A stretch of DNA of 16,769 nt from NCBI GenBank assembly GCA_038207085.1, contig JBBRAE010000047.1, positions 1-16,769 on the forward strand. The letters run 5' to 3'. Shown in pieces: positions 1 to 16,704 of this stretch. The translations under genes and the position numbers were made by a program. The DNA comes from Armatimonadota bacterium (lineage in GTDB: Bacteria; Armatimonadota; UBA5829; DTLH01). The notes beneath the pieces were generated by a model, which made no database searches, was not told where the DNA came from, and saw nothing but the letters and a program-made list of their open reading frames with translations. Position 1 is the first letter of the stretch. Each line of letters opens with the position of its first letter.

Positions 1-110
1 CTATAGAGGCCGTCGTGGAACATCGTTCGACCGGCCCCGGCGATTGGGAACCGTATCTGAAGAGTCTGAAGAAGTTGGATGCGACACCTACCCAACCGAC
101 AACTGAGTGA
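1..110 (+). CDS. Probable 3' end of a gene entering from the left edge
   Basis: Frame from position 3 is open and reads IEAVVEHRSTGPGDWEPYLKSLKKLDATPTQPTTE to TGA at 108-110. It would overlap the convergent hicB-like gene by 23 nt. No family recognised. Confidence 0.35.
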   Translation, partial: IEAVVEHRSTGPGDWEPYLKSLKKLDATPTQPTTE

Positions 111-306
111 TGTAAACCTCGCCACACGACCTCTGTGACACTTCCTCTGGTGACGCCGTCTCGAAGAAAAGCTCCAAAGCTTCCTTCAAGTTAGCAAGTG
201 CATCTTCAACGGTCGCGCCCTGACTGGCAATATCCAGTTCAGGACAAAGCGACACATAGGCATCGTCTTCCCGCCTGGTTATGCTCATTAGTCTTTGGAA
301 GCTCAC
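88..306 (-). CDS. hicB: HicB-family antitoxin-like protein (short form, no DNA-binding domain)
   Basis: 72 aa with typical HicB N-domain pattern REDDAYVSLCPELDIASQGATVEDALANLKEALELF. GTG start overlaps the upstream TGA (GTGA). Confidence 0.85.
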   Translation of the reverse strand: MSFQRLMSITRREDDAYVSLCPELDIASQGATVEDALANLKEALELFFETASPEEVSQRSCGEVYITQLSVG

Positions 307-479
307 AGCATCGACCCCTTGCCGCCGTCGAGGTGGCTCTTCATAAAACCCTGCTCCTGCTTTTCGATCTCAGGGATCAGCCGCTCTTTGATGAATGCGA
401 GGGCTTCGACCGGGTCGCGATCCATTGCGATTACCTTGAGGCGCAGGATGTCCTCATCGGTCAGTGTGACGGTTGCCAC
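303..479 (-). CDS. Small hypothetical protein, 58 aa, absent from the ORF track
   Basis: GTG at 479 directly follows the anti-sigma TAA (480-482) with GGAG upstream. Reads MATVTLTDEDILRLKVIAMDRDPVEALAFIKERLIPEIEKQEQGFMKSHLDGGKGSML; TGA at 303-305 overlaps the hicB GTG. Fills the gap exactly. Confidence 0.8.
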   Translation of the reverse strand: MATVTLTDEDILRLKVIAMDRDPVEALAFIKERLIPEIEKQEQGFMKSHLDGGKGSML

Positions 480-1169
480 TTATTCTCCAGTCCCCTCCCC
501 TTGCGGCTCTTCGGGAAGCGCAGGCCACACGGGATCAATCGCAGTCGTCTCCTGCGCTTCGGGAGCGGATTGGTTCTCTATGATATTTCCGACCGGCGAA
601 GACTCGGCCATCTGCACTCCTGGAACTGAGGCGTTGGCATCCGGCTCTTCTTCCTCGTGCCGACGAACTACACCCGAGCCGCTGCGAGAGGTCTCCACAC
701 CGTATGGGCGGCGGAACGGGTCGGCCGCGTAGAGCGTCTTTGGCTCTGAGGGAATGCTGACATCACTGGCGGCCACATGCTTCTGCGACCTCTCGGGGAC
801 GTATTTGACTATCACCTTCGCAGGCTTCGCCCGCACCCCGTAAAGCGCGCCGAAACCAAAAGCTGAGCCAACAACCATAACGATTGCAAACCCCTTGATC
901 GCGGCAAACGCAAAGACCCGAAGCCGACTTGCCTCACTCTTTGCCCGAACAGCGCCCTTGACGGCCCACGTGACCCGCAGGCGTTCTTCGTCGGTGAGCT
1001 TGGGGAGATCGCTTGGGACGAGCGCAACAGTCCTTCTGAGCGCCTCGACCTCGATTCGGCAGGCGTCGCATGTGTCGGCGTGTGTGCGCACCCGACGCAT
1101 CTCGTCGAGCGCAAGATCGCCGTAGACGTACGCGCCGAGAAGGTCAGATATCTTTCTGCATTCCTTCAT
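480..1169 (-). CDS. Zinc-binding anti-sigma factor (zf-HC2/ZAS), single transmembrane segment
   Basis: From ATG 1169 (GGGAGG upstream): MKECRKISDLLGAYVYGDL...HADTCDAC (HxxxCxxC), hydrophobic segment VFAFAAIKGFAIVMVVGSAFGFGALYG, acidic Pro-rich C-terminus. Immediately downstream of the ECF sigma. Confidence 0.9.
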   Translation of the reverse strand: MKECRKISDLLGAYVYGDLALDEMRRVRTHADTCDACRIEVEALRRTVALVPSDLPKLTDEERLRVTWAVKGAVRAKSEASRLRVFAFAAIKGFAIVMVVGSAFGFGALYGVRAKPAKVIVKYVPERSQKHVAASDVSIPSEPKTLYAADPFRRPYGVETSRSGSGVVRRHEEEEPDANASVPGVQMAESSPVGNIIENQSAPEAQETTAIDPVWPALPEEPQGEGTGE

Positions 1170-1170
1170 A

Positions 1171-1767
1171 TTATTGGACCTCCCTAACCACAAGCTCGAC
1201 GTAACCTGCAAGCGTGCTGCGAAGGTGGGAGGTAGCGCGGGAGAGGTGTGACTTCACAGCCCCGACCGAACACCCCATCGTCTCCGCAATCTCGATCAGC
1301 GACAGGAACTGGTAGTGCCTCAGGATAAACGCGAACCGTTGCCGCTCTGGAAGCTCGTCGACCGCCGATCTGATCGCGTCGCGCAGTTCCCGATTGCCCA
1401 GGTTCCACGACGGATCCCCTTCGTCGCCGCCCTGCAACCGGTCCCATTCGTCCTCAGTAAGCTCCAGTTCGCTGCTGCTCGACCTTCGTTTGACGTCGAT
1501 ACAGTGGTTGAGACAGACCCGATAGAGCCACGCCGACAGGTTCCCTCCGCAGTCGAACTTCGGAAGCATCCGGTGCAGCTTAATAAACACCTCCTGTGCC
1601 GCGTCAAGCGCCTCCTCCCGGTTGTGCATCACGCTCCATGCCAGGCCAAACACTTGATCCATATGAAGCGCCATCAACCGGTCAAAAGCCTCAGCGTCCC
1701 CGGCCCGAAACCGCGATATAAGCAGTTCATCTTCGCCAGTCAGCACAGTTCCATCATCCTTCGGCAA
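1171..1767 (-). CDS. ECF-family RNA polymerase sigma-70 factor
   Basis: Region 2 (GDAEAFDRL...DAAQEVFIKL...SAWLYRVCLNHCID) and region 4 (LPERQRFAFILRHYQFLSLIEIAETMGCSVGAVKSHLSRA). TTG at 1767 preferred over 1800 because GAGGAG lies 9 nt upstream. Confidence 0.95.
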   Translation of the reverse strand: MPKDDGTVLTGEDELLISRFRAGDAEAFDRLMALHMDQVFGLAWSVMHNREEALDAAQEVFIKLHRMLPKFDCGGNLSAWLYRVCLNHCIDVKRRSSSSELELTEDEWDRLQGGDEGDPSWNLGNRELRDAIRSAVDELPERQRFAFILRHYQFLSLIEIAETMGCSVGAVKSHLSRATSHLRSTLAGYVELVVREVQ

Positions 1768-1789
1768 TTTGTCTGTCTCCTCAGTGGTA

Positions 1790-1818
1790 TAAACGATCAA
1801 GCACGACGAAAGGTTTAC
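1790..1818 (-). promoter_or_regulatory. Putative ECF-type (autoregulatory) promoter
   Basis: Minus strand GTAAAC-N17-CGTTTA matches the AAC/CGT ECF pattern, just upstream of the sigma gene RBS. Confidence 0.55.
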
Positions 1819-1853
1819 CCGTTTTTGGATTTCTCCATAACTCCACGCATTCG

Positions 1854-1862
1854 TGGTATAAT
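1854..1862 (+). promoter_or_regulatory. Extended -10 promoter for the small gene at 1879
   Basis: TGgTATAAT, followed by AGGAG and ATG 1879. Confidence 0.65.
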
Positions 1863-1878
1863 TGTATAGGAGAATGAT

Positions 1879-2064
1879 ATGGCTTCACTTCGCAAAACAA
1901 ACCCGAACCTGAGCGATCCCGAGCGACTATCGTGGATGATAGCCCGAAACGCCTATCAATCCTCGGTGTTCGAGGGCGCGTCACCTCGTTCTTTGTCAAA
2001 AGCCAAGGAACTCGCATATCCGCGCGCCAAAGCCTCCTCGAAGAAGACTACCAAGGCTGAATAG
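1879..2064 (+). CDS. Putative Fic antitoxin (VbhA/FicA-like inhibitory helix), convergent with and overlapping fic
   Basis: 61 aa with RBS and promoter; ARNAYQSSVFEG contains (S/T)xxxE(G/N) at residues 28-33 (nt 1960-1977); basic C-terminal tail. Confidence 0.7.
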   Translation: MASLRKTNPNLSDPERLSWMIARNAYQSSVFEGASPRSLSKAKELAYPRAKASSKKTTKAE

Positions 2065-2640
2065 TCCTGATAATACCCTTTGACCACTGCTTCCAAATAC
2101 TGAGACTGCGTAGATTTCGCACGCTTGCCGATAAAGCCATAGTCCGGCACCGTCAACCCGGCTTGAGCAAACATCAGATCAAGCAATCCACCTGGCCAAC
2201 CTGCCATTTCCTTCCCGGAACGGATGTATCAGAAGTAACTCCGCATGAACCTGGGCTACTGAACTACATACGACAGACACATCGTTGGGTTCACAGGGAG
2301 TGAGCCTGCTCAACAATTCACTCTCGAACGTGTTCATGTTGTCAGGGATCAGATATGCTGGAGGAAAGGTGAATCCACCTTTGGAAACATCGACGGTTCG
2401 ATAGGCCCCAGCCCATTCATATATGCCACCCAGCCAGTCGCGGTGCATCTGGCGGATGAGACCCGCAGTGAAAACAGTGTCACTTGTAACTATATCATCG
2501 CGAACATATACGGTCTGCGCGTGAACAAGCGCACTGAACTCCGCTTCATCCGTCGCCAATTTCGTCTTTATCCCCAACTTATTCCTGAGCACCCGATTGT
2601 GCGATCCAGGTTCATACCCAGCCTCAGGGCCGATGGGCAT
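1956..2640 (-). pseudogene. fic: Fic-family AMPylase split by a 1-nt frameshift (pseudogene or sequence error)
   Basis: Canonical HPFREGNGRLAR motif, then TGG ATT GCT TGA. Removing one T at 2181/2182 gives WIADLMFAQAG..., joining the 1956..2207 frame into a 227-aa protein. Confidence 0.85.
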
Positions 2641-2678
2641 CCTCTATACCTGTTCACTGTCCCTCCACCCCACATACC

Positions 2679-2713
2679 AAAAAGGACCGCATCCCATTAC
2701 AGAACACGGTCCT
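2679..2713 (-). terminator. Intrinsic terminator after gyrB
   Basis: Minus strand AGGACCGTGTTCTG-TAA-TGGGATGCGGTCCT stem (several G-U pairs) followed by TTTT. Confidence 0.7.
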
Positions 2714-2722
2714 ATCATATCC

Positions 2723-2750
2723 TAATAGCTAAAAGCTAACAGCTAATAGC
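2723..2750. repeat. Tandem heptamer repeat (TAANAGC)x4
   Basis: TAATAGC TAAAAGC TAACAGC TAATAGC, between the gyrB stop and its terminator. Confidence 0.9.
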
Positions 2751-2756
2751 TTGAAT

Positions 2757-4947
<2,191 letters not shown>

Positions 4948-5081
4948 GTCTGAGCCCCGTCTTGCCCGGGCACGGGAGTAGCAAAGGAGCTGAGCAATAT
5001 ACGAAGCATTGCGAATAACCAGTGACGCGCAAACAACAACTGTTCACACTTGTCAAGGAGGAAGAAATGCGACTGAGCAGG

Positions 5082-5618
5082 CTATCGACCCACGCGCCGC
5101 TTGTCCCATTTCCTGTACGGCAGCCCAAGCTCCCGGAGCCGGACGCGCATCGCGGCGATCGACACCCCGAAGCGCTCGGCCATAATAGCCACTCTGTGCT
5201 CTTCGTTTGCCCGCAGGTCTTCAAACCACTCTCGCACAAGCGCCTCGGGCATCAGAAGAAGCGCGGCGAAGCGGTCGCAGGCACGTTCGAGCCTGTTCTT
5301 GCGCGTGCCAACGCCGTCAACGCAGAAGACACCGGGGCGATAGTGGCCGAGCAGGTGGTGGCCCATCTCGTGGGCGAGCGTAAACCTCTGCCTGGCAAGC
5401 GGCTTCAGGTAGCTTGAGTTGATCGCGACCAGCGGGGTGTTGTCCTCGGGGTGACGGGTATAGAACCCATCGATCTCCTCCAGAAACTCCACCCTGTCAA
5501 CCGTAATACCAAGCCTCTGGGCGACGTAATCGAGGTCTACCGGCGGCTCAAGTTTCAGCGTTTCCCATGCCTGGTGCGCGAGGCGCTCCGCGTCGGTTTC
5601 GAAGTATATACCGGCCAA
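5082..5618 (-). CDS. ImmA/IrrE-family zinc metallopeptidase (peptidase M78/DUF955)
   Basis: PPVDL, RQRFTLAHEMGHHLL (HExxH), ERACDRFAALLLMP, C-terminal helical MAERFGVSIAAMRVRL. TTG start 2 nt after the XRE gene stop, with GAGG upstream. Confidence 0.93.
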   Translation of the reverse strand: MAGIYFETDAERLAHQAWETLKLEPPVDLDYVAQRLGITVDRVEFLEEIDGFYTRHPEDNTPLVAINSSYLKPLARQRFTLAHEMGHHLLGHYRPGVFCVDGVGTRKNRLERACDRFAALLLMPEALVREWFEDLRANEEHRVAIMAERFGVSIAAMRVRLRELGLPYRKWDKRRVGR

Positions 5619-5620
5619 GA

Positions 5621-5977
5621 CTAACCTCGCTTGGAGGTTTTGCTCATCTTGCCCATTACATAGTCGATGATCTGCTGTTTGGCCTCATCGGAAAGATCGG
5701 TCTGGCAGCGAAGGATGACCCCCACAGCCGTAGCCGAATCCACTTGGTCGGGCTTGGGAACGTATCCCGCCGACATCAAAAGCTCAACCTCGCTCAAGCC
5801 GTCATACGACTGCGCCATACGCTTGATGACTTCTTCTGAAGGCACGCGACCATCGGACATGTCTTTCCAGTAGGCCGCGCTGATGCTCGATTGCAGCCCC
5901 GCTGCCCGAAACGTCAAACCCTGCCCCTGCAAAAAACTCTTTACAAGCTTACCGAATTCCGGCGATACTCTGCTCAT
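5621..5977 (-). CDS. XRE-family HTH transcriptional regulator, 118 aa
   Basis: From ATG 5977 (AAGGAG upstream): FGKLVKSFLQGQGLTFRAAGLQSSISAAYWKDMSDGRVPSEEVIKRMA...ELLMSAGY; coupled to the ImmA/IrrE gene. Confidence 0.8.
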   Translation of the reverse strand: MSRVSPEFGKLVKSFLQGQGLTFRAAGLQSSISAAYWKDMSDGRVPSEEVIKRMAQSYDGLSEVELLMSAGYVPKPDQVDSATAVGVILRCQTDLSDEAKQQIIDYVMGKMSKTSKRG

Positions 5978-6008
5978 AACTAACTGTCTCCTTAGTTCAC
6001 TACTTCTT

Positions 6009-6037
6009 AACATAACACAGAGGCACACACCTGTCAA
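6009..6037 (-). promoter_or_regulatory. Sigma-70-type promoter of the XRE-ImmA operon
   Basis: TTGACA-N17-TATGTT with extended TG, shortly upstream of the XRE RBS. Confidence 0.75.
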
Positions 6038-6328
6038 TAGAAAAATACAGCCTTTATGTGGAGTGCGGCGCGCAAGCGCCAAATTATCGCCATGCGTGGA
6101 GATTTGTGAAAGCGGCTCTCGCAAGCCGCACTCTAAATCGAGATTGACCGCTGCCAACAATTCTTATGTCCCTCGCATTTCGGCCAGTTTTCCAATAAAA
6201 CCAGCAATTCTCACCGGACACATTGCCCCACCAATGCCGAATACTACATGTATGAACGCGATATGCCCGTCTACTGGTAACTTGGCGGGTTGTTCGTGAA
6301 AACTAGTAACGCTGCTGGGCAAAAATAA

Positions 6329-6358
6329 TGAAACGGTACGACCTCTGCAGCAGTCTAA
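6329..6358 (+). promoter_or_regulatory. Possible ECF-type promoter
   Basis: TGAAAC-N17-AGTCTAA, about 70 nt upstream of ATG 6430. Confidence 0.4.
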
Positions 6359-6429
6359 TCATGTAGGGAAAGGTAAATGGCAGAACCGCCATTTGCTATG
6401 GAGTGCAGCTCAACGTGGAGGTGGTCACA

Positions 6430-7434
6430 ATGAAAAAGTTAACATTGACTCTTTTGGCCATCGCGTGTGTGGCTTGCTCCGCCCGGATAACCTCCGCGAC
6501 GTCAAGCGTTGTCTACCAGAAGGTGGTCGTCTACTCGACCCCGGTCCATGTCGTGTATGCGGATTTGAACGACAAAGACGTTAAAGTAACCGTGGCTATC
6601 AGCAAACGAGGCCGCGGCTCAAGCGAACCTGCGTCGTCCATTGTCTCAAGAACGCGCCCGACCGCAGCAATCACAGGCACGTTTTTCGACACCCGCACTC
6701 TTATTCCTACTGGTGATATCCAGATCTGCGGCACCCGGGTGCACTCCGGGTGTGTCGGCTCCGCGCTCTGCATCACGAAAGACAACCAGGCAAAGGTCAT
6801 CCCCTGCAAGCAAAGAAGCGAATACAAAAACGCGCCCTACGAAACAGTCCTGCAGGCGGGGCCTACTCTAGTTATGGACGGACGAATCTCGATGAACCCC
6901 CGCGCCGAAGGGTTCAAAGACCCGAGGCTCTTTGCAGCGACAAAGAAGACCGCAGTCGGCGTCACTGCCACCAACAAGATCGTGCTGGTGTCGGTGAACA
7001 CTCCGGTCAGCATGCGCAAGCTCGCGAAGATCGTCCAGCGTCTGGGATGCACCCAGGCCATACTCCTCGACGGCGGCACATCGACCGCGATGTACGCTGG
7101 CGGTCGGTTCGTATCCAGGCCCGGACGAAGACTCACAAACCTGCTCCTGGTCTACCAGACCGCCGAGTCGTACCGACTCGCAAGCGCGCAGCTTGCGCCG
7201 ACGCTTCTTTCACGGGCGAGCAATGCGACCGAACCGGTCGCCCTCGCCAAACTACCCAACCTGACCCCCTGGCATGGACAATTGGTTGAAGTAAAAGCCG
7301 ACACAGGGACTCTTCCATCGCTTGCCGAAGAGTATCCAGTCTCGACCGATCTCGGCATGCCCGAGTCCAACGCCTATCGAATCGAACCGGCGGCCGACTA
7401 TCGGTCTAAAGAAATGCCAGCGGATGCACGATAA
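6430..7434 (+). CDS. Secreted phosphodiester glycosidase (NAGPA/DUF2233)-family protein
   Basis: GGAGGTGG RBS, signal peptide MKKLTLTLLAIACVACSA; motifs AAITGTFFD, QAGPTLV, KTAVGVT, LGCTQAILLDGGTSTAMY. Confidence 0.85.
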   Translation: MKKLTLTLLAIACVACSARITSATSSVVYQKVVVYSTPVHVVYADLNDKDVKVTVAISKRGRGSSEPASSIVSRTRPTAAITGTFFDTRTLIPTGDIQICGTRVHSGCVGSALCITKDNQAKVIPCKQRSEYKNAPYETVLQAGPTLVMDGRISMNPRAEGFKDPRLFAATKKTAVGVTATNKIVLVSVNTPVSMRKLAKIVQRLGCTQAILLDGGTSTAMYAGGRFVSRPGRRLTNLLLVYQTAESYRLASAQLAPTLLSRASNATEPVALAKLPNLTPWHGQLVEVKADTGTLPSLAEEYPVSTDLGMPESNAYRIEPAADYRSKEMPADAR

Positions 7435-7659
7435 TTATTGAACTACGCACCCCATTGTTGTTACTTGCACGGGTTGGGTAACGGAAGCCCGATGGGAGCA
7501 TAGCGAGATTGGCGAGTGGCTGGACGCCGGCATCCACCCCGGAGGAAGCCTGGGCCGACTGACCGTGGACATCGCGCCTCACGGGTTCGCGCTGTTCAAG
7601 TTCGGGAAGCAGGGACAGGGGGTTAGCTTCGGGGAGATTGGTGGGTGTCGAGGGTTTGG

Positions 7660-7799
7660 GTGGAGCGCACGTTTCGAGAGCCTCAACGTGATTGGTTTAG
7701 GTTGATCTATAGTTGAGAGATTGGTGGTCGCGGTACAATCCCTCACACATTCACCCAAGCCAACCCATCACCCTGAGGCTCTCGAAGGGTGCGCTCCAC
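7660..7799. repeat. Inverted pair of 33-bp REP-like palindromic units (7660-7692 and 7767-7799)
   Basis: Reverse complement of copy 1, ATCACGTTGAGGCTCTCGAAACGTGCGCTCCAC, versus copy 2, ATCACCCTGAGGCTCTCGAAGGGTGCGCTCCAC: 29/33 identical; between convergent genes. Confidence 0.85.
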
Positions 7800-7830
7800 A
7801 AATCAAAGGGCGTACTACAACAAATAGAAG

Positions 7831-8793
7831 CTACCCTAACCCACCAAGTCTCGCCATCCCCGCCGCAACCGCAGCCAAATCCTGTGTCCGGTCCCCAAGC
7901 GGCGTAGCCACAATCTCAAGACCCGCGCGAATCTCCGGCCAAACTTCTTCTTCGACTGTTCTCAGTAGTTCGAGTAAGAGCAGATCCCCCGCGTGGACAG
8001 CCATCGTGCCGAGGGTAATAAGCTCGGGGTCAAACGCGTGCGCGGCGATCGAGACCGCTCGGCCCATCGCCCGTGCCGCGCCCTTTAGCACTTCGATAGC
8101 AAACTCGTCCCCTGCCCTCGCAGCTTCACAGACTGCCAGGCCATCAATCTCGTCCAGACGCGACAGAGCCGTTTGAATACCGTCTGCGACACCCTCGGTA
8201 GCGATCCGAACGATTGATGAACCCGATGCGTAAGCCTCGATGCAGCCGCGTTTGCCACAGCCGCAGGGCCTCCCGCCAGGCACGTAGGTCGTGTGGCCGA
8301 TCTCGCCTGCAAGTCCCCTTGTTCCCGAATAGAGACGGCCGCCGATGATTATCCCGGACCCTACACCCGTGCCCCAGGTGAACGAGACGATGTTCTGCTT
8401 GCCCCGTCCCGCCCCAAAGAGAAATTCGGCCAGGGCGGTTGCGTCGGCGTCGTTTAGAAGAGTTGCGGGACGGCCGAGTCCGCGCTCGACTATCTCGACC
8501 ACGGGCACAGGGTTCCAACCCGGCAGGTTCGCCGGGCCGAGGATCACCCCGGAGGCAGAGTCAAGCGGCCCCCCGCAGCAGACGCCGACGCCGTCAATAT
8601 CTGAGACAGAAAGCCCACGCGCGGCGACAATAGAACGTGTGTCACGGATCAATCGAGCGAGCGTAGCCATCGGGCCAAGCTCGATTTCAGTCCTCGCGCT
8701 AACGCGATCTATGAGCTCGCCCGTACGCGTTGCTAAAATAACAGATGATTTCGTCCCACCTATGTCGAACCCTGCGATATAACCCGATTCCAT
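7831..8793 (-). CDS. ROK-family sugar kinase (glucokinase-like)
   Basis: GFDIGGTK phosphate loop, NDADATALAE, WGTGVGSG, AGEIGH, CGCGKRGCIE zinc motif; no N-terminal HTH from ATG 8793. Confidence 0.92.
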   Translation of the reverse strand: MESGYIAGFDIGGTKSSVILATRTGELIDRVSARTEIELGPMATLARLIRDTRSIVAARGLSVSDIDGVGVCCGGPLDSASGVILGPANLPGWNPVPVVEIVERGLGRPATLLNDADATALAEFLFGAGRGKQNIVSFTWGTGVGSGIIIGGRLYSGTRGLAGEIGHTTYVPGGRPCGCGKRGCIEAYASGSSIVRIATEGVADGIQTALSRLDEIDGLAVCEAARAGDEFAIEVLKGAARAMGRAVSIAAHAFDPELITLGTMAVHAGDLLLLELLRTVEEEVWPEIRAGLEIVATPLGDRTQDLAAVAAGMARLGGLG

Positions 8794-8800
8794 AATGCAC

Positions 8801-8829
8801 ATACTACAACGACATGCGCGCAAGGTCAA
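8801..8829 (-). promoter_or_regulatory. Sigma-70-type promoter implying a leaderless ROK mRNA
   Basis: TTGACC-N17-TAGTAT, then 7 nt to the ATG; no Shine-Dalgarno. Confidence 0.6.
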
Positions 8830-8893
8830 CCGTCGGTTACGGCGCGCGGCAATCGGGGTAAATATACCAGAACCTAAGCAGGAGGACACACTG

Positions 8894-10099
8894 ATGGCTG
8901 AACAGCCTTACGATTACATAATCATCGGCGGAGGGCTCGCGGGCGCAATGGCGATCGACGGGATCCGGGAGATCGACGAAGACGGGTCGATATTCCTCAT
9001 CGGAAAAGAGACGCACAACCCCTACGACCGCCCGCCACTTTCAAAGAAGCTATGGTTCGGCCAGAAAAAGGTCGAAGAGATCACGGTGCATGACCAGGGG
9101 TTCTTCATGGAAGCGAACGTCGACACGCTCTTTGGCGTCGAGATCGCCCTTATCGAACCTCGTAAGCGACTGATCGCCGACAGCCGGGGCGGCGTCTACC
9201 GCTTCGACAAACTCCTGATCGCCACCGGCGGAACACCGCGCAGGCTCGATATCCCCGGCGGCGACCTAGAAGGTATCTGCTACTACCGCACGCTCGACGA
9301 CTACCAGGCGACACGCGCAATGGCCGCTGAAGGCAAGTCGGCGGTGGTGATCGGCGGCGGGTTCATCGGCTCGGAGATGGCGGCGGCGCTTCGGATAAAC
9401 AAGCTCGATGTGACGATGGTCTTCCCGGACCCCTACCTGCTCCAGCGCGTCCTCCCCGAGAGCCTCGCCCAGGCGATTCAGGCCGACTACATTGAGCGCG
9501 GAGTCAAGGTGCTCGCCGAGGACGCTCCGGTCGCATTCGAGAAACGAGGCGAGAAGTTCGTCACCCGCACCGGGGCTGGGCAGGTGATAGAGTCTGATAT
9601 CGTGATCGTAGGGATCGGCATTCGGCCATCGACTGAGCTTGCCGAAAAGGGCGGGCTCAAGATCGAAAATGGGATCGACGTCGATGAGTTCCTCCAGACC
9701 TCCGAGCGCCATGTCTACGCCGCAGGCGACAACGCGTATTTCCCCTACAAGGCGCTCGGGCAGAAGACCCGGGTCGAGCACTGGGACAACGCACAGAGCC
9801 AGGGCACGCACGCCGGGCGCAACATGGCGGGCGCACTGCAGCCGTTTACCTATATGCCCTACTTCTTCTCTGACCTCTTCGACTTTGGCTTTGAAGCAGT
9901 CGGCGAAGTCGACTCCCGACTCGACACCTTCCTCGACTGGCAAGAAGAGAACAAATCCGGGGTAATCTATTATTTGAAGAACGAAAAGGTGCGCGGCGCG
10001 ATGATGTGCAACGTCTGGGACAAAGTCGAGGCGGCGCGCAATATGATCAAACGAGGCAAGAAGGCAACGCCCGAATATCTGACCGGCGCGATCAAATAG
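8894..10099 (+). CDS. FAD/NAD(P)H-dependent oxidoreductase, ferredoxin reductase/AIF-like
   Basis: AGGAGG RBS; IIIGGGLAG, PYDRPPLSK, LIATGG, VIGGGFIGSE, YAAGD, RVEHWDNA, PYFFSDLF. Confidence 0.92.
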   Translation: MAEQPYDYIIIGGGLAGAMAIDGIREIDEDGSIFLIGKETHNPYDRPPLSKKLWFGQKKVEEITVHDQGFFMEANVDTLFGVEIALIEPRKRLIADSRGGVYRFDKLLIATGGTPRRLDIPGGDLEGICYYRTLDDYQATRAMAAEGKSAVVIGGGFIGSEMAAALRINKLDVTMVFPDPYLLQRVLPESLAQAIQADYIERGVKVLAEDAPVAFEKRGEKFVTRTGAGQVIESDIVIVGIGIRPSTELAEKGGLKIENGIDVDEFLQTSERHVYAAGDNAYFPYKALGQKTRVEHWDNAQSQGTHAGRNMAGALQPFTYMPYFFSDLFDFGFEAVGEVDSRLDTFLDWQEENKSGVIYYLKNEKVRGAMMCNVWDKVEAARNMIKRGKKATPEYLTGAIK

Positions 10100-10107
10100 G
10101 GGGATAT

Positions 10108-10437
10108 ATGCAACTAAACGAACAAAAATGCGAGGCATGCCGAGTCGGCGCCCCGACGCTTACAACCCAGGAGGCCGAAAGCCTGCTAAAGGAAATTCCG
10201 GGCTGGACATTGAAGGAACACTCGATAGAGCGGGAATACAAGTTCAAAGACTTCCCCGAAGCGATCGGCTTCATAAACAAAGTCGCAGAGATCGCAAACG
10301 AAGAAGACCATCACCCGGATATCTATAACTCCTACAGCACGGTAAAGATCGAGCTCTGGACGCACAAAATCGGCGGGCTATCGAAGAACGACTTTATTGT
10401 GGCGGCAAAGATAATCAAACTGGGAGAAAGTAGCTAG
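10108..10437 (+). CDS. phhB: Pterin-4a-carbinolamine dehydratase
   Basis: KCEAC N-terminus, FKDFPEAIGFINKVAEIANEEDHHPDI, WTHKIGGLSKNDFIVAAKI; GGGG upstream of ATG 10108. Confidence 0.93.
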   Translation: MQLNEQKCEACRVGAPTLTTQEAESLLKEIPGWTLKEHSIEREYKFKDFPEAIGFINKVAEIANEEDHHPDIYNSYSTVKIELWTHKIGGLSKNDFIVAAKIIKLGESS

Positions 10438-10464
10438 TAGTAGCCAGTTATATATGGAGAACAC

Positions 10465-11211
10465 ATGCCTATCTACGAGTTGAAAGACAAAGTGGCTCTT
10501 GTCACCGGTGCGGCAAAGCGCATCGGACGGGCGACTGCCATCGCGCTCGCCGACGCCGGGGCGAACGTCATCGTCCACTACAACACCTCGCGCGACGAGG
10601 CGGCTGATCTCGTCGCCGAGCTTGAAGAAAAGGGTGTGCGCGCGTGGATGGTGCAGGCGGACTTCGCCCGTCCCGAAGAATACGGCACGCTTATTCAGAA
10701 AGCCGTCGGGGTCGCGGGTTCGCTTGATATTCTCGTCAACAACGCCTCGATCTTCCCGCGCGAGACTATGGATGAGGTCGATTTCGGGAGCTTCAACGAG
10801 AACATGCAGGTAAACGCCTGGGCTCCCTTTGTCTTCGCCCGCTCGTTCGCAAAAGAGCTCTGCCGCGGCAAGATCATCAACATGGTCGACAGCCGCATCA
10901 CGAGCACGGACTGGACGCATGTGGGCTATATCTGGAGCAAACATGTAATCAACGAGATGACCCGGATGATGGCGCTTGCCTGGGCCCCGGATATCACCGT
11001 GAACGCCGTCGCACCGGGGCTGATCCTCCCCCCACCCGGGCAGGATCAAAGCTACATCGAGCGCCTGACCAACACGGTCCCATTGAAAAAGCACGGCGAA
11101 CCCGAGGACATCGCCCGGGCGATCATGTTCCTGCTTGAAAGCGATTTCATAACCGGACAGGTCATATTCGTCGACGGTGGCCGACACCTTAGGGAGTTCA
11201 ACGTTGGATAA
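10465..11211 (+). CDS. folM: Pteridine reductase-like SDR (FolM/PTR1 type)
   Basis: TGAAKRIG (Arg typical of PTR1/FolM), HYNTS, NNASIF, MVDS, YxxSK, VNAVAPG; embedded among pterin genes. Confidence 0.8.
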   Translation: MPIYELKDKVALVTGAAKRIGRATAIALADAGANVIVHYNTSRDEAADLVAELEEKGVRAWMVQADFARPEEYGTLIQKAVGVAGSLDILVNNASIFPRETMDEVDFGSFNENMQVNAWAPFVFARSFAKELCRGKIINMVDSRITSTDWTHVGYIWSKHVINEMTRMMALAWAPDITVNAVAPGLILPPPGQDQSYIERLTNTVPLKKHGEPEDIARAIMFLLESDFITGQVIFVDGGRHLREFNVG

Positions 11212-11554
11212 AATCCTGATCAAAGACCTGATGCTCCGCTGCGTGATCGGCATCAGAGACGACGAACGGCGCGAAAAGCAGGACGTAGTGATCAACATCG
11301 CCCTCTCAGCCGACCTGACAAAGCCGGGACAGACCGACGAAGTCGCCGACACCGTCGACTACAGCGAGATCAAGAAACGCATCGTAGCGCTTGCAGAACA
11401 CTCAAGCTTCTTTCTGGTAGAAGCCCTCGCCGAAGCGATCGCCGCGATTTGCCTCGACTACCCGATGATAGAGCAGGCGCAGGTGACGGTAGAGAAGCCG
11501 TCGGCGCTCCGGTTCGCCCGAAGCGTAGGGGTGGAGATCACGAGACACAGGTGA
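11204..11554 (+). CDS. folB: Dihydroneopterin aldolase/epimerase (FolB/FolX family)
   Basis: TTG start with AGGGAG, overlapping the SDR stop; MDKILIKDL..IG..E...Q, DTVDY, LVEALAE, VEKPSA. Confidence 0.88.
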   Translation: MDKILIKDLMLRCVIGIRDDERREKQDVVINIALSADLTKPGQTDEVADTVDYSEIKKRIVALAEHSSFFLVEALAEAIAAICLDYPMIEQAQVTVEKPSALRFARSVGVEITRHR

Positions 11555-11563
11555 CAGGGTAGC

Positions 11564-12103
11564 ATGACTCAAGTGTTTGTCTCCATAGGCTCGAATATCG
11601 ATCCTGATCGAAACGTTCGGGCTGTTCTGCGGATGCTTTCTGAGCGGACACGGCTCGTCGGCGTGTCGACCGTCTACTGCAGCGAGCCTGACGGCCCGAT
11701 CGACCAGCCCATGTTCTTCAACGCCGTCGCAGAGATTGTAACCGAGCTTGCCGCGTCAGAACTCAAGTTTGGGGTGCTGCGAAAGATCGAAGACGAGCTC
11801 GGGCGCATTCGCACGGGGGATAAATATGCCCCGAGAACGGTCGATCTTGATATAATAGTCTATGGCGACGAAATTGCGCGCTCTGAGGAGCTTGAGATAC
11901 CCGATCCCCAGATCGAGAGCCGGGCGTTTCTCTCGGTCCCGCTCTGTGAGCTTGCGCCTGAGCTGGTCGTCCCCGGACATGGGCCGATAAAAGAGACTGC
12001 AGCCCGGCACAGGGACCACAGTATGACCGCGCTCCCAGAGCTTACGGCGGATATACGAAAGGACTTGAAAGATGAACCACGAAAGAGTGCAGGAGCTCGT
12101 TAA
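11564..12103 (+). CDS. folK: 6-hydroxymethyl-7,8-dihydropterin pyrophosphokinase
   Basis: [38 protein letters not shown]. Confidence 0.95.
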
Positions 12104-12638
12104 AGAGCTTTTGATAGAACTTGGGGAAGACCCGAACCGCGAAGGACTGCTCAAGACCCCGCACAGGGTCGCGCAAGCCTACGATTTCCTCACGTCCGGC
12201 TACCACGTGGACAAAGACAAGGTGATCAACAACGCGATCTTCACCCAGGAAACCAACAACATGGTCATCGCGCGCGACATCGAGATCTACAGCCTGTGCG
12301 AACACCATATGCTGCCGTTTTTCGGCCGCTGCCACATCGGTTACATCTCCAATGGTAAAGTTTTTGGAGTAAGCAAGCTTGCGCGGCTCGTCGACATGTA
12401 CGCCCGCCGCCTGCAGATCCAGGAGCGCCTGACCGAACAGATTGCCCGGGCGATCAAGGACACCATCGGCGCGGAAGGCGTCGGCGTGATAATCGAGGCC
12501 CAGCACCTCTGCATGATGATGCGCGGAGTCCAGAAACAGAACTCGATGATGACCACATCAAGCGTCCTCGGCAGCTTCCACGACTCTCTCGCCACCCGCA
12601 ACGAGTTCCTGTCGCTTATCAGCAGGCCGAGACCATAG
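12072..12638 (+). CDS. folE: GTP cyclohydrolase I
   Basis: [51 protein letters not shown]; overlaps folK by 32 nt. Confidence 0.97.
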
Positions 12639-12657
12639 GACCGCAAGGTAAATCTTC

Positions 12658-13155
12658 ATGAGCCAGATGTGGGGAATCAGCTTTCCGTGGTGGCAATTTG
12701 TCCTACGGGCGATAGTGGTGTATGGGTCGATCATCTTCCTACTTAGGCTCGCAGGGAAGCGGCAGATCGGTCAGATGAGCACCGGTGAGTTCGTAGCGAT
12801 CCTGCTTATCAGCAATGCTGTCCAGAACTCGATGAACGGCGGGGACAACTCGATAACCGGTGGTCTCATCCTTGCCGTTGTGATCATCGGCATCAGTATA
12901 CTGGTTGACTATGGAACATACAAGTCCCGTAAGTTAGAGCACCTGATACAGGGAAGGCCTACGCTGCTAATCCACAATGGTGTCGTTCTCGAAGATCGCA
13001 TGCGCAAGGAGCTGCTGAGCGACTACGAACTGAAGACCATTCTGCGAAAGCAAGGGATTCATACCTACGAGGACATCGCAGCGGCCATAATGGAAAGCGA
13101 CGGCTCGGTGAGCGTGATAAAGAAGTCCGAACTGTCGCACCCGAATAACGGATAA
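12658..13155 (+). CDS. DUF421 (YetF-like) membrane protein
   Basis: LLRLAGKRQIGQMS, ISNAVQNSM, GRPTLLIHNG, LRKQGI, MESDGSVSVI. Confidence 0.9.
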   Translation: MSQMWGISFPWWQFVLRAIVVYGSIIFLLRLAGKRQIGQMSTGEFVAILLISNAVQNSMNGGDNSITGGLILAVVIIGISILVDYGTYKSRKLEHLIQGRPTLLIHNGVVLEDRMRKELLSDYELKTILRKQGIHTYEDIAAAIMESDGSVSVIKKSELSHPNNG

Positions 13156-13197
13156 TTACCAGGACGGCTAACCGACTAACTTAATCACGCGCGTATA

Positions 13198-13291
13198 CCG
13201 CAGCAGGTGTTATATGCTGCGGGAACTTCATTGTTGGGGTGGCGATTTCCGAATCACTACCCCAAAGCTAAGACGGGATTTCCAAATCCCG
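13198..13291. repeat. Cluster of three hairpins, two sharing GATTTCCRAATC
   Basis: CCGCAGCA-N9-TGCTGCGG (13198-13222); TTGGGGTGGCGATTTCCGAATCACTACCCCAA (13234-13265); CGGGATTTCCAAATCCCG (13274-13291). Confidence 0.7.
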
Positions 13292-13372
13292 AATGGCGTA
13301 ATGCATGGCAATTGGCCCACTATTTGAAGACGACCAGTCTGTGCAGGGCGGCGTTCTCGCAGCATACGCAAC

Positions 13373-13453
13373 TTGGAGGCGAACCTTCAAGACCTCTCAG
13401 CAAGGCTTGCACGTGGAGCGTATCACGCCAAGCCAGTGAGACGGGTGTATATC
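13373..13453 (+). pseudogene. Group II intron reverse transcriptase fragment (RT0-RT1)
   Basis: LEANLQDLSARLARGAYHAKPVRRVYI, a characteristic intron RT segment broken off before PK. Confidence 0.8.
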
Positions 13454-13620
13454 GAAGAACGCGCGAATGTCTATATCGAGTACCCAGTTCACCTTCTTCC
13501 TCTGGATCGAGAGCGCCAACGCATCCAGAGTTTGATGCTGGCAGCGTCGCGGTCTGAACCCGTAGGAGAAGTCCTTGAAGTCGACTTCATAGACCGCCTG
13601 CATTACTTCAGCACTACTGC
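13451..13620 (-). pseudogene. Group II intron reverse transcriptase fragment (RT2-RT3), inverted
   Basis: EVMQAVYEVDFKDFSYGFRPRRCQHQTLDALALSIQRKKVNWVLDIDIRAFFD, with SYGFRP and DIxxFFD motifs; no YADD region present. Confidence 0.88.
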
Positions 13621-13843
13621 AGTTCAAATTACAGTCAGCGTAGGCAGAGCCTTTCAGTCTGCTGGCTTGTGTTTTGGTTCATCACTCAAAAGCCGCCACT
13701 GTGGGCATCACCACTCACCGTGCTTGGTCATGGTCTATACCCCTTTTCACTGCCCAACTGGCCCCAATACCGCCCGCCCCATAGTGTGTATGTCAGTTTG
13801 CATGCCAGACATGTCTGGGTAAACGCCAGTTGAGGTAACTATA

Positions 13844-14659
13844 GTGGCACCACAATCCGCACGCGAGGCAGTCAGACAGAAACGCCGGCTTGAGCAGGAG
13901 GAACTGTTGGTGTCTGCCCAGGGGCTCCTTGAGATCCCTATGGTCATTCTCTCACTTGTCATGATTGTTGTGTTCGTGATTGAGGTGAGCGCCCATGTGT
14001 CTCCTGGAGTCGCGCGCGTCCTTGACCTGATACAGTGGGCAATCTGGGTCGCCTTTGTTATCGAGTTTGCCGTCAAAGTGGCACTTGCCCCCGACAATAC
14101 ACAGTTCATCAAAAGCAACTGGCTTATGGTAATTGCAATAATTCTGCCAGCTTTCCGAATTTTCAGGATAGCTCGCGCAGCGCAGGCACTGCGCTCTATT
14201 GGGGCGCTTAGAGTCATAACACTTGGCAACCGCACAATCAGCAAGCTTGAAATCCTGTTTGCCCGCAGGCGCCTACAGTACGTGATGGCTGTCGTGGCGG
14301 CCATGTCAGTCCTCTCAGGAGCGGGGATCTACTACCTGGAGAAGGGTGCCCCTGGAGCGACAATCAGGACCCTGGGCGACGGGCTCTGGTTTGCAAGCGG
14401 GATCGTCACCACAGTCGGCACAGAGCTCTACCCCGTGACTGCCGAAGGACGAGTGCTCAGTCTAATCGGAATGGTCTTTGGTGTCAGTGTCTTTGGATAC
14501 CTCGCCGGCTCACTTGCAAGCTTGTTCGTTGACATAGATAGAGCCGACAAGGAAGAAGATGAGTCCGTGGATGAGAGCCAAGTCGAGGCGCTTACCCAAG
14601 AGATTGAGTCACTGCAGCAAAGAATTGCGGAGCTAACTGCCAGGTTTGGCGAGCGATAG
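13844..14659 (+). CDS. Potassium-channel-superfamily ion channel with voltage-sensor-like domain and atypical filter
   Basis: GAGGT RBS and GTG; Arg-periodic PAFRIFRIARAAQALR; pore region GDGLWFASGIVTTVGTELYPVTAEGR; C-terminal coiled-coil-like segment. Confidence 0.88.
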   Translation: MAPQSAREAVRQKRRLEQEELLVSAQGLLEIPMVILSLVMIVVFVIEVSAHVSPGVARVLDLIQWAIWVAFVIEFAVKVALAPDNTQFIKSNWLMVIAIILPAFRIFRIARAAQALRSIGALRVITLGNRTISKLEILFARRRLQYVMAVVAAMSVLSGAGIYYLEKGAPGATIRTLGDGLWFASGIVTTVGTELYPVTAEGRVLSLIGMVFGVSVFGYLAGSLASLFVDIDRADKEEDESVDESQVEALTQEIESLQQRIAELTARFGER

Positions 14660-15604
14660 GTGGAGGGTACATCTGTGGACACACTGCGGAATTGGTTTTC
14701 CGGCACTACTGCAGTCCAAATTGCAGTTAGCATAATCGGTATAGTCGTCATCCTGATCGCAGTGCGCCTAGCACGGCGGGCCATCATTCTTTATGTGGAG
14801 GAGCCAGCTGCCCGTTACCGAGCAAGGAAACTCGTCACTCTTGGAGCATACATGCTGATGCTCCTTGTGCTCTCACTTGTCTTTCGCACCCGCCTTGCCG
14901 GGCTCACTATCTTCTTTGGAGCCGCAGGCGCAGGGATCACCATTGCGCTTCGTGAGGTCATACTAAGTGTTGCCGGCTGGCTCACGATCACCTTCGGAGG
15001 CCTCTACTCAGCAGGCGACAGAATCCAGATCGCGGGAGTCAGAGGTGACGTGATTGATGTTTCTATCCTTAGAACCACGGTAATGGAGATAGGAGAGTGG
15101 GTGGAGGCAGATCTCTACACCGGGCGCACCGTGCGCGTCTCAAACAGCTTTGTATTTCAGCAGCCGGTTTTTAACTACTCCGGTGACTTTCCGTTCCTGT
15201 GGGATGAAGTAAGGGTGCCGATAAAGTACGGCTGTGACCGCGCGCTGGTGCGTGAGATCCTCACACGAGTCACAAACGAGGTGGTCGCGGATTACACTAT
15301 AGAGGCAAAAGAAGACTGGAGACACATGCTGCGGCGCTTCAGGGTTGAGCCAGTCACAGTAGAGCCCGTCGTGACCCTGATCGCCAATGACAACTGGCTT
15401 GAGTTCACAGCGCGCTATGTTGTGAGCTACAAGAGGCGAAGGCTGACCAAAGATGCGATCTACACCCAGATACTCGACGAGTTTGATAAGACCGATGGGC
15501 GTGTCCGCATTGCCTCACAGACTCACGACATTGTCGGCTTTCCTGACATTACAGTAGACTTAAGAGACGGTGCACAGCGACCCAATACCGGTGCAGACGG
15601 TTAG
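14660..15604 (+). CDS. MscS-family small-conductance mechanosensitive channel
   Basis: GAAGAGITIALREVI, GDRIQIAGVRGDVIDVSILRT, NSFVFQQPVFNYS; GTG directly after the channel TAG. Confidence 0.92.
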   Translation: MEGTSVDTLRNWFSGTTAVQIAVSIIGIVVILIAVRLARRAIILYVEEPAARYRARKLVTLGAYMLMLLVLSLVFRTRLAGLTIFFGAAGAGITIALREVILSVAGWLTITFGGLYSAGDRIQIAGVRGDVIDVSILRTTVMEIGEWVEADLYTGRTVRVSNSFVFQQPVFNYSGDFPFLWDEVRVPIKYGCDRALVREILTRVTNEVVADYTIEAKEDWRHMLRRFRVEPVTVEPVVTLIANDNWLEFTARYVVSYKRRRLTKDAIYTQILDEFDKTDGRVRIASQTHDIVGFPDITVDLRDGAQRPNTGADG

Positions 15605-15681
15605 CCCGCTTTATTCGTGAAGCGAATACAGCTCTCGCTAACAGAGCATTATTCACGAGAAGCGTGAATAATGCGGGTTAG
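15601..15681. repeat. Nested inverted repeats after mscS
   Basis: Perfect 12-bp IR GCATTATTCACG-AGAAG-CGTGAATAATGC (15646-15674) flanked by CTAAC/GTTAG, plus a degenerate third arm TTAGCCCGCTTTATTCGTG (15601-15619). Confidence 0.75.
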
Positions 15682-15830
15682 TGCCAATACCGTTTACTTA
15701 GGTACAAGGCTGATTGCCTAAGAATCTTGATCTGCGGTGTAGACTCTCGCAGCCGAACCCGAACAGGCATCGTCCAAGAACTGAAGTCACAAATACTGGT
15801 TGGTTATATCTCCTGTGAGAGGTGAATGCT

Positions 15831-16463
15831 ATGCCCAGGGTCAGCAACTCAAACACGCAGTTTCACGGCAAGACCGCCCTCGACTTCGACGATATCAGCT
15901 TTATAATCGTTTCAAGTGTTCTGGCGTCTGTTGCACTGCTGTCACACTCGGTTCCCGTATTGATAGGCGCGATGATTCTTGCACCCGTCTTCGACCCACT
16001 TATCGCCATTCCATTCGGACTCGTCAACGCTGACTGGAGGCTGGCACTGCGGGGACTGGGCAACTCACTGCTACTCCTTTTGATATCTTCGGTTGTGTGC
16101 TTTGGGACAGTGTGGGCCGCGCTTTACCTTGATGCCATCCCCGCAACCATGACAAAACTCGGGCCGGATATGGTGACCGAGAGGCTGATAGTAGGCTGGC
16201 ACAGCTTCATCACGGCCCTTGCCGCCGGAGTGGGCGGCGCACTGGCATTTGCCTCCAACCGACGGGAAAATATCGTCGGGGTAGCGGTTGCTCTGGCACT
16301 TATCCCTGCGCTTGCCGCGACGGCGATAGGGTTCCACTACCAATTGCCTGGACGCTTAGGGGGCCTTGCTCTGGTCGCAGTCAACGTCGGCGGCATAGTG
16401 CTTGCGGGGATTGCGGCGCTGTTCCTGCGCGGAACGCTAAAGCGCACACCGAACAACGACTGA
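15831..16463 (+). CDS. DUF389-family membrane protein
   Basis: GAGGTGA RBS before ATG 15831; VLIGAMILAPVFDPL, ALAAGVGGALA, GVAVALALIPALAATAIG. Confidence 0.85.
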   Translation: MPRVSNSNTQFHGKTALDFDDISFIIVSSVLASVALLSHSVPVLIGAMILAPVFDPLIAIPFGLVNADWRLALRGLGNSLLLLLISSVVCFGTVWAALYLDAIPATMTKLGPDMVTERLIVGWHSFITALAAGVGGALAFASNRRENIVGVAVALALIPALAATAIGFHYQLPGRLGGLALVAVNVGGIVLAGIAALFLRGTLKRTPNND

Positions 16464-16704
16464 GCACACAGCCTGTGCCGGGAGATCAGCTCTTTTGATG
16501 CTGCGGCTCTCGGTTTGTTGAGCCACGACACACGCTACACTGCGCGACAGCCTTCGGGCGATGTACCTGCTCACCTATGATGGCGGCCACAGTCGACGAT
16601 CATGGGGCTTCGGGACGGAAGAGCTGTCCCGAAGCATCAAAAGCATCAAGACAACGCTTGGCAATCTGCTTGAGTGATCGCTCGAAAGTCAGTAATTACC
16701 TCAC

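Follow-up and report, generated by a model that had tools for sequence, protein, structure and literature searches.

By attaching AMP, Fic enzymes inactivate other proteins; inhibition of the class I enzymes by a small protein is already known. According to two publications (PMC5033356, PMC13327609), the described FicA genes are located directly upstream of fic in the same operon; in Escherichia coli, yhfG precedes fic on the same strand with an overlap of 11 nucleotides (nt). The present analysis concerns a locus with a different gene order, found in an Armatimonadota bacterium (GenBank assembly GCA_038207085.1, contig JBBRAE010000047.1, positions 1 to 16,769 of the forward strand; this whole stretch of 16,769 nt is called the window). 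There, an open reading frame (ORF) of 61 amino acids (aa), whose predicted product carries the inhibition motif [S/T]xxxE[G/N] and is a candidate antitoxin, faces a fic gene from the opposite strand and overlaps its 3' end.

The class I antitoxins are described as binding helix alpha-1 of Fic, the serine and the glutamate of their motif engaging the active site and its second arginine (PMC8401265 and PMC5033356). In this inhibitory helix (alpha-inh), the glutamate blocks productive ATP binding, as stated in PMC5033356, and FicA is made of three helices according to PMC8401265. The class I complex Fic-1-AntF is reported (PMC13327609) to act as a deAMPylase of GyrB. Among the papers listed by a literature search, which did not cover most subscription papers, none reports a Fic antitoxin gene that is convergent with fic or overlaps it.

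Conservation of the small gene

Fic was found in 11 of the 41 genomes surrounding that of the window. Seven of these sequences are close (60-72% identity), all seven are uninterrupted, and each is accompanied by a convergent ORF of the form MASLxxTNxxL...SSxFEG. A profile of eight small proteins matched 92 proteins (E ≤ 0.01) among 595 candidates of a collection clustered at 90%. None of the 92 has a name beyond "hypothetical protein" or a Pfam domain, and 91 carry [ST]xxxE[GN]; E32 and G33 of the small protein are invariant in the family alignments. A HMMER pass over 1.84 billion representatives (50% clustering) gave 468 matches at E ≤ 0.001, including 130 at E ≤ 1e-10, with lengths of 49-177 aa among the best 150 of the 468. 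The preliminary description of the locus had expected that gene callers would tend to discard the ORF as a shadow of fic; this did not hold in general, the family being represented in both collections (92 called proteins and 468 representatives, all unnamed).

Selection on codons was assessed by the ratio of nonsynonymous to synonymous differences per site (pN/pS), using Nei-Gojobori counts pooled over all pairs. Outside fic, the small frame had the lowest ratios: over 29 loci, aa 2-13 gave 0.37 and aa 15-36 gave 0.52, the competing frames ranging from 0.51 to 2.1. When loci were separated by the length of the overlap, the small frame gave 0.46 over aa 2-36 where the overlap is short (22 loci) and 0.44 over aa 2-25 where it is long (six loci). 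The second-lowest ratio was always that of the antisense frame with the same wobble positions, which is a mirror effect.

These values bear on the possibility of a shadow ORF, that is, a plus frame which is not translated and whose conservation mirrors the 3' end of fic or a regulatory region. The last 20-36 codons do mirror Fic (the basic end SSKKxxK of the small protein lies opposite FFEE of the last Fic helix) in a frame that is open by default, and in this tail pN/pS is no better for the small frame (0.46) than for the fic frame (0.37, 22 loci). However, the first ~40 codons, motif included, are located outside fic in most loci, where amino acids are conserved and third positions are free. 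The ATG and the -10 box are conserved as well, the small ORF is intact where Fic is a remnant, a phage operon contains a solitary homologue of 51 aa, and the complex modelled below combines a high score with a confidently folded partner. A shadow ORF is in our view very improbable; judged from its sequence conservation and codon selection, the 61-aa ORF is a genuine gene, and the family to which it belongs is widespread and unnamed.

Association with Fic

Among 401 genomes sampled across the phylum, matches to the small protein were obtained in 38 and matches to Fic (E ≤ 1e-20) in 32. The convergent small ORF was present in 28 of 30 Fic loci fetched, the 3' end of fic being off the contig in the other two. 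The search for a conserved antisense ORF of the TNPxL...SSxxEG type at homologous fic 3' ends, proposed as a check in the preliminary description, was thus positive in all 28 assessable loci, and in all 28 the inhibitory motif is located, as in class I, on a separate small protein encoded beside fic. Unlike the upstream operon genes of class I, the small gene was downstream of fic and on the opposite strand in every locus inspected.

A pattern scan with one genome per species detected 43 loci with the small gene. The Armatimonadota loci belong to Capsulimonadaceae, Chthonomonadaceae and Armatimonadaceae; others were found in metagenome-assembled genomes (MAGs) labelled Planctomycetota, Chloroflexota, Binatia, Deltaproteobacteria, Ignavibacteriota, Bacteroidetes, Elusimicrobia, Gammaproteobacteria, Legionellaceae and Sumerlaeota, again with a convergent Fic or Fic piece beside the small gene. 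The genes flanking the module vary between loci, which suggests, as far as gene order can tell, a mobile module. Taken as a whole, the small proteins are likely to be partners dedicated to a single Fic AMP-transferase subfamily, whose members are single-domain and VbhT-like.

Predicted structures and complex

The catalytic motif is invariant in the 17 intact Fic relatives, which are 215-236 aa long. Fifteen of them are devoid of [ST]xxxE[GN] and hence, like class I enzymes, of an inhibitory helix of their own; the other two have TRGAEG among their non-conserved last residues. The Fic model (predicted local distance difference test, pLDDT, 87.4) found its best structural match in VbhT (3shg_A, E 6.6e-9, template modelling score 0.79 on the target), followed by E. 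faecalis Fic (EfFic), EcFicT and Fic-1. For the small protein, the AlphaFold2 model (pLDDT 84) comprises a helix at residues 14-31, a second one at 40-46 and two short N-terminal turns, the tail 47-61 being of low confidence. The motif (S28-G33, with E32-G33 as its last two residues) is placed at the end of the helix 14-31.

The complex was modelled for the intact natural pair of a relative (locus L014), using our own alignments of 17 and 68 sequences. Its interface score ipSAE was 0.91, 0.92 and 0.91 in three runs, versus 0.42, 0.17 and 0.01 for the controls, with a partner pLDDT of at least 81 and a contact agreement of at least 92% between runs. The mark set for ipSAE is reached by 116 of 157 solved complexes and by 2 of 215 mismatched pairs, counts that are approximate when, as here, own alignments are used. 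On the Fic side, the predicted interface consists of residues 32-59 (alpha-1), G149, G151, R152, R155 and W156; on the side of the small protein, it consists of residues 1-35. In the model, S28 and S29 of the L014 small protein touch Fic G151, R152 and R155, thus including the arginines of GNGRxxR, and E32 is predicted to lie within the interface, its contact residue not being given by the model output. The modelled geometry resembles that described for class I antitoxins.

Proposed function

From the conserved sequence features and the codon selection, which are observed, and from the predicted interface, we infer that the small protein probably acts as a trans inhibitor which keeps Fic off in the manner of a class I antitoxin, while being encoded by a convergent gene with a promoter of its own. 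The Fic-binding part would be formed by the N-terminal 35-45 residues, namely the segment MASLxETNPYL and the long helix ending with SSxFEG. This part would bind alpha-1 and the active-site loop of Fic, placing the motif on the two GNGRxxR arginines, and the invariant glutamate would then block productive ATP binding, by analogy with class I Fic antitoxins. The complex might also act as a deAMPylase, as in Fic-1-AntF. Free Fic would, under this reading, be toxic through some target protein.

The way in which the loci decay is relevant here. A census of 61 unique loci, all reached via the small gene, showed an intact Fic in 32 of them, a Fic split into frames in 14 and none recognised by the profile in seven; four loci keep the 3' part only (plus two cut by the locus end), and Fic is otherwise partial in two. 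A decayed Fic thus accompanies an intact small gene in about 40% of loci, and three of the seven profile-negative loci keep a ...DYDDLA.FFEE... remnant under the intact small ORF. Other split Fic genes are broken at profile positions 76/75, 122/118, 82/83, 150/148, 153/154 and 134/136, and the diversity of these positions points to independent events. Conversely, none of the 28 assessable Fic loci has an intact Fic without the small ORF. In a single case (L082), the small ORF has no glutamate, and Fic is there in three pieces. This pattern fits a harmful enzyme with a protective partner.

The small protein could instead be a Fic partner that is not mainly an inhibitor, for example a deAMPylase cofactor, a chaperone or a target-specificity subunit, the pair then being a reversible housekeeping regulator. 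Chaperone roles have been proposed for BiaA (PMC8401265), and the loci are chromosomal and adjoin housekeeping genes such as gyrB and uvrB. Against this stand the frequent association of an intact small gene with a broken Fic, whose reverse was never seen, and neighbouring genes that vary as for mobile modules; such a role therefore appears improbable.

Inhibition in trans, which we retain as the preferred function, has to be weighed against a number of observations. The small family has no detectable homology to FicA, VbhA, YhfG or AntF in Pfam, NCBIfam, PADLOC, PDB sequence, Foldseek or hhalign comparisons. The window ORF has no Pfam match at E ≤ 1, and no antitoxin family is matched at E ≤ 10 by sets of 8 or 68 members, the sole Pfam trace among the 68 being Fic_N in two (E 0.017), treated as noise or a weak lead. 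A PDB sequence search with the small protein was empty, Foldseek against PDB gave nothing at E ≤ 0.001, and the YhfG family PF10832 has no match in the genome at E ≤ 10. With E. coli YhfG, hhalign aligns only 13 motif columns (RSTYESSLFEGAS with RNFQASRRLEGVE) at a probability of 0.64%. The predicted fold has one long and one short helix instead of three antiparallel helices. As for the numerical evidence, the pairs pooled for pN/pS depend on one another and pS approaches saturation; the 61 loci were chosen via the small gene, so that its own decay is not countable there; some split Fic genes come from long-read MAGs and could be sequencing errors. Finally, solved Fic-antitoxin complexes exist, and the complex score may stem from the memory the model has of them, so that its passing the mark shows likeness rather than binding. 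Two further matches were recorded for the small protein: a chance NCBIfam match to TarF (E 0.051), the only one in that collection, and YhfG as the nearest named cluster in the atlas (score 0.83), which is a lead only.

State of the fic gene in the window

Coordinates of the features of the window are given in Table 1.

Table 1. Features of the small gene, fic and their surroundings in the window
Feature	Position	Strand	Source
Small-gene promoter, extended -10 box TGGTATAAT	1854-1862	+	read from sequence
AGGAG, Shine-Dalgarno-like motif, 6 nt 5' of the ATG	1868-1872	+	read from sequence
Small gene, 61 aa, candidate trans-acting inhibitory-helix protein (Fic antitoxin-like); translation read from the window MASLRKTNPNLSDPERLSWMIARNAYQSSVFEGASPRSLSKAKELAYPRAKASSKKTTKAE	1879-2064	+	ORF listing
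SSVFEG, fits the [S/T]xxxE[G/N] inhibition motif	1960-1977	+	codons of small ORF
Antiparallel coding overlap of small gene and fic, 109 nt	1956-2064	both	ORF coordinates
Stop codon of fic	1956-1958	-	
3' piece of fic in a second frame, last helices and 17-residue tail ...RGDAPSNTED	1956-2207	-	profile positions 156-214
5' piece of fic, 153 aa, ending HPFREGNGRLARWIA, then in-frame TGA at 2179-2181	2179-2640	-	ORF listing
Catalytic FIC motif, HxFx(D/E)GNGRxxR, present as HPFREGNGRLAR	2191-2226	-	translation
Intrinsic terminator of gyrB, stem of 14 pairs and TTTTT, ~40 nt upstream of the fic start	2683-2713	-	terminator scan

The plus-strand ORF, its promoter box, the AGGAG motif and the extent of the overlap had all been announced in the preliminary description and were recovered without change. 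The assignment of the minus-strand gene to Fic/DOC is based on the catalytic motif and on Pfam PF02661, which matches 2182-2640(-) with E 4.5e-15 (56.7 bits for a cut-off of 24); the NCBIfam matches (VbhT, NmFic, PRK10347 and "mobile mystery protein B") are weak and all far under their cut-offs.

Unlike an ordinary Fic/DOC gene, the window fic is interrupted, being divided between two frames, as had been hinted by the earlier mention of a "repaired Fic". The two pieces adjoin on the family profile (positions 8-157, then 156-214), and the lesion is therefore a one-base frame shift, located at ~2179-2185, and not a deletion. The window Fic is also devoid of the conserved N-terminal RY, whose tyrosine is invariant in the 17 intact relatives. 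A second assembly of the likely source sample is identical over 1700-2751 (depth 12.5, 0 differences), so that the break is not an artefact of one assembler, albeit with a sample that is not independent; the lesion occurs in a short-read assembly and outside any homopolymer run.

A programmed +1 frameshift, by which full-length Fic would still be made, is suggested by a Shine-Dalgarno-like AGGTGG 3 nt before GCT TGA, a site that we take to resemble the prfB frameshift site. However, the 17 intact relatives are all single-frame here, with AGG TGG as conserved Arg-Trp codons, the other split Fic genes break at different profile positions, and the window Fic has in addition lost its invariant tyrosine; programmed frameshifting is thus hardly credible. 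The fic of this genome is a pseudogene; the module, although its small gene is still intact, has decayed, and the pair can therefore not work here as a live toxin-antitoxin module. The tail-to-tail Fic module with a trans-acting (S/T)xxxE(G/N) helix put forward in the preliminary description was supported for the family, by conservation, codon selection, the complex model and the position of the motif at a helix end, and not for a live module at this locus.

Overlap of the two genes

The overlap is 55-127 nt long in nearly all loci that retain the 3' end of fic, and in 46 of 52 related loci its number of nucleotides is 1 mod 3; three distant loci have overlaps of 12 nt, 26 nt or none. In the window, the third codon positions of the two genes coincide (coordinates 0 mod 3), and each gene therefore constrains the other little.

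A typical family overlap is ~61-73 nt and leaves both the motif and all of the structured portion of the small protein outside fic; in most of the family, only the last ~20 codons of the small ORF, which encode an unstructured tail, enter fic. The stop codon of the small ORF lies antisense to a tyrosine codon that is invariant in Fic, that of the DY or RY preceding the last helix. When Fic codons of short-overlap loci were shuffled synonymously, the antisense frame was open in ~100% of trials, so that an open tail is no evidence of selection. The coding overlap is accordingly, to judge from these sequences, largely a passive run-on of the small ORF.

In the subclade of the window (six loci, to which L025 is added with an extension of different sequence), Fic is 17 residues longer and crosses the motif; in a relative, the extension is predicted to be disordered (pLDDT <50, residues 218-233). 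At the motif, pN/pS in these six long-overlap loci is 0.10 for the small frame versus 0.20 for the fic frame. Because the small frame is the more constrained and the extension is predicted to be disordered, the ...RGDAPS... of Fic in this subclade is best read as a mirror of ...EGASP... in the small protein. The placement of SSVFEG opposite the last fic codons, pointed out at the outset, was thus borne out in the window and extends to its subclade, whereas most members of the family have their motif beyond the end of fic; the feature is real and local, and probably secondary.

Transcription signals and antisense control

A two-hexamer promoter scan of the window did not report the TGGTATAAT box, because it has no -35 match. 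From a -10 box ending at 1862, transcription is predicted to start at ~1869-1870, within AGGAG. The mRNA of the small gene may thus have a very short leader, with AGGAG, as deduced from the position of the box, at or before the transcript start. In 19 of 29 related loci, the small ORF is preceded within 60 nt by a box of the form TA[ATC]A[AT]T, often (T)GGTATAAT, the chance expectation being ~8% by our own arithmetic with equal base frequencies. Only 5-9 nt separate the end of the box from the ATG in five relatives, in line with a leaderless mRNA.

On the fic side, uvrB is located upstream in one Capsulimonadaceae clade only. In L027, L030, L031, L032 and L048 (Capsulimonadaceae and kin), fic starts 5-8 nt past the uvrB stop codon on the same strand. 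In that clade, Fic would be co-transcribed with this DNA-repair gene. Since fic follows uvrB by 5-8 nt there and lies ~40 nt past the gyrB terminator in the window, its mode of transcription, as read from gene order, varies between lineages, the facing promoter of the small gene being retained.

Terminators were searched by a scan of the window and by a hairpin-plus-T-run scan of the window and 17 intact loci, and nothing consistent was found on either strand between the two genes. A hairpin at 1971-1988(+) was rejected as a terminator, being made of the EGASPR codons and not conserved in five sister sequences.

These features raise the possibility of a hybrid control, already suggested in the preliminary description, which would be added to inhibition by the protein: the transcript of the small gene could also act as a cis-antisense RNA on the 3' end of the fic mRNA, through a duplex cleaved by RNase III, or the convergent promoters could interfere, the ratio of toxin to antitoxin then being set by the layout itself. 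Full-length mRNAs of both genes would be complementary over the coding overlap in nearly all loci, and, no convincing terminator being present, they probably extend further into each other. The two genes remain convergent from phylum to phylum, a promoter box precedes the small gene, and a published type II system, RelBE, is co-regulated by an antisense RNA according to PMC9325379. On the other hand, pS in the overlap (0.70-0.73) is as high as outside (0.69-0.81), a comparison that cannot test pairing since no substitution abolishes it in cis. An antisense frame that is open over fic is to be expected by chance, as the shuffles indicate, the three distant loci have little or no overlap, and in several lineages fic, located 5-8 nt after uvrB, has no promoter of its own. 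For window positions 1500-3000, no RNA run is listed, and one DNA run, probably the source, is.

It is therefore only tentatively that such hybrid control is proposed. With about the same reserve, the small gene could be regarded as a dual-function antidote, whose protein would plug the Fic active site in the manner of type II systems and whose antisense transcript would destabilise or silence the fic mRNA in the manner of type I systems. If this were true, the head-on layout would act as a ratio controller, less transcription of the antidote resulting in more toxin mRNA and less inhibitor. Inhibition by the small protein, considered on its own, remains the reading that we prefer.

Neighbouring genes and additional observations

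In the window, gyrB (2757-4811, minus strand) is directly upstream of fic, an adjacency that is not conserved among the related loci. GyrB is the published target of FicT toxins, whose growth inhibition proceeds by AMPylation of GyrB/ParE and is relieved by the antitoxin. A general link between fic and gyrB as such a target was considered and rejected, since upstream genes differ between loci. The junction between the two genes contains a low-complexity stretch of ~30 bases (ctaatagctaaaagctaacagctaatagc, 2722-2752) that is common to several short contigs of run X1; two long X1 contigs meet at this place, where the depth rises from 12.5 to 30-35. The gyrB-fic junction therefore crosses a repeated word in the assembly graph.

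Just past the small gene, and on the fic strand, an extracytoplasmic function (ECF) sigma factor (1171-1800, minus strand) is followed by a zf-HC2 anti-sigma factor (480-1211, minus strand). No terminator was found between fic and these genes in the window scan, and read-through from fic would meet the promoter of the small gene head-on. Further along (88-479, minus strand), two small ORFs of 72 and 58 aa overlap, the first with a weak DUF7387 match (E 2.4e-4) under the cut-off; by eye it may be a HicB-type antitoxin, and the pair may be toxin-antitoxin-like. On the other side, an ImmA/IrrE-type metallopeptidase (Peptidase_M78, E 3.4e-19) adjoins a weak HTH_31 protein (5082-6160, minus strand), a regulator pair that is typical of mobile elements and defence islands.

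The viral collection contained two loci with a homologue of the small protein, of 51 aa (L117:3001-3156(+) and L118:847-1002(+); ...ETNPYLRDPE...SSAAIEG..., profile E 6.7e-14). On these viral contigs, it sits in a same-strand operon between ORFs of 232 aa and 977 aa, with no Fic nearby. This orphan homologue could be a phage-borne anti-Fic factor.

Comparison with known systems

With the class I FicTA systems (VbhT/VbhA, EcFicT/EcFicA, i.e. Fic/YhfG, and Fic-1/AntF), the module shares a single-domain Fic with HPFx(D/E)GNGRxxR and no inhibitory helix of its own, as well as a separate small protein with [S/T]xxxE[G/N] at a helix end, predicted here to bind Fic. It differs from them in its candidate antidote gene, which is downstream, convergent, overlapping and provided with its own promoter, and in the predicted disordered basic tail of the product. 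On sequence and model grounds, the small family was filed as working like a class I antitoxin and not as a member of the FicA, VbhA or YhfG families. So far, class I Fic toxins had as a rule been guarded by a small protein whose gene directly precedes fic in its operon; the family departs from this rule, in a conserved manner, in several phyla. Searches restricted to upstream genes would miss such a partner, and tests of fic alone or with a trimmed 3' flank would mislead.

The class III enzymes (NmFic, E. faecalis Fic) are also small single-domain Fic proteins. They resemble the present Fic in size and sequence, their inhibition relies on the same glutamate motif, and E. faecalis Fic is the best PDB sequence match of the Fic studied here (5nv5, E 1.1e-11). 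Their motif is however in the C-terminus of Fic itself, whereas it is encoded here on the opposite strand of the same DNA. A class III reading, in which the Fic tail would inhibit its own enzyme, was rejected, as the motif is absent from 15 of 17 relatives and the extension is predicted to be disordered.

The Fic subfamily is itself not new, since it corresponds to the PADLOC candidate PDC-S04: the Fic of a relative matches PDLC04839 with E 1e-59, its residues 1-210 being aligned on profile positions 1-203 of 205. In one native-host test of PDC-S04, no defence was found (bioRxiv 10.1101/2024.12.20.629700). PADLOC lists it as a single-gene Fic-family candidate defence system, unlike the two-gene layout found here, and its model, which gave no hit with the small partner, does not include it; treating fic as a single gene would, as in this case, miss the partner.

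In the type I systems TxpA/RatA and BsrG/SR4 of Bacillus subtilis, a convergent antisense RNA overlaps the 3' end of the gene of a small membrane-peptide toxin. As in these systems, toxin and antidote face each other and have complementary 3' ends. Their antidote is however a non-coding RNA and their toxin small and hydrophobic, whereas here the candidate antidote is a conserved protein, with a frame under protein-level selection, and the presumed toxin an enzyme of 215-236 aa. The resemblance to the antisense-co-regulated RelBE also lies in a toxin and an antidote transcribed towards each other with complementary 3' ends.

Excludons are conserved convergent overlapping gene pairs of prokaryotes, and a tail-to-tail overlap of tens of bases kept across relatives is common to them and to the present module. 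Unlike in excludons, the two products are predicted here to bind each other, and a single invariant tyrosine codon in the partner gene accounts for both the phase and the stop position of the overlap. The pair would thus be a clean natural example of two interacting proteins whose genes share one piece of DNA on opposite strands, in a phase leaving both free to evolve, and a system for asking whether control at the protein level and at the antisense level can be combined in one toxin-antitoxin module. Compared with all these systems, what is new is the proposed inhibitor family and its conserved convergent gene layout for a class I-type control of Fic.

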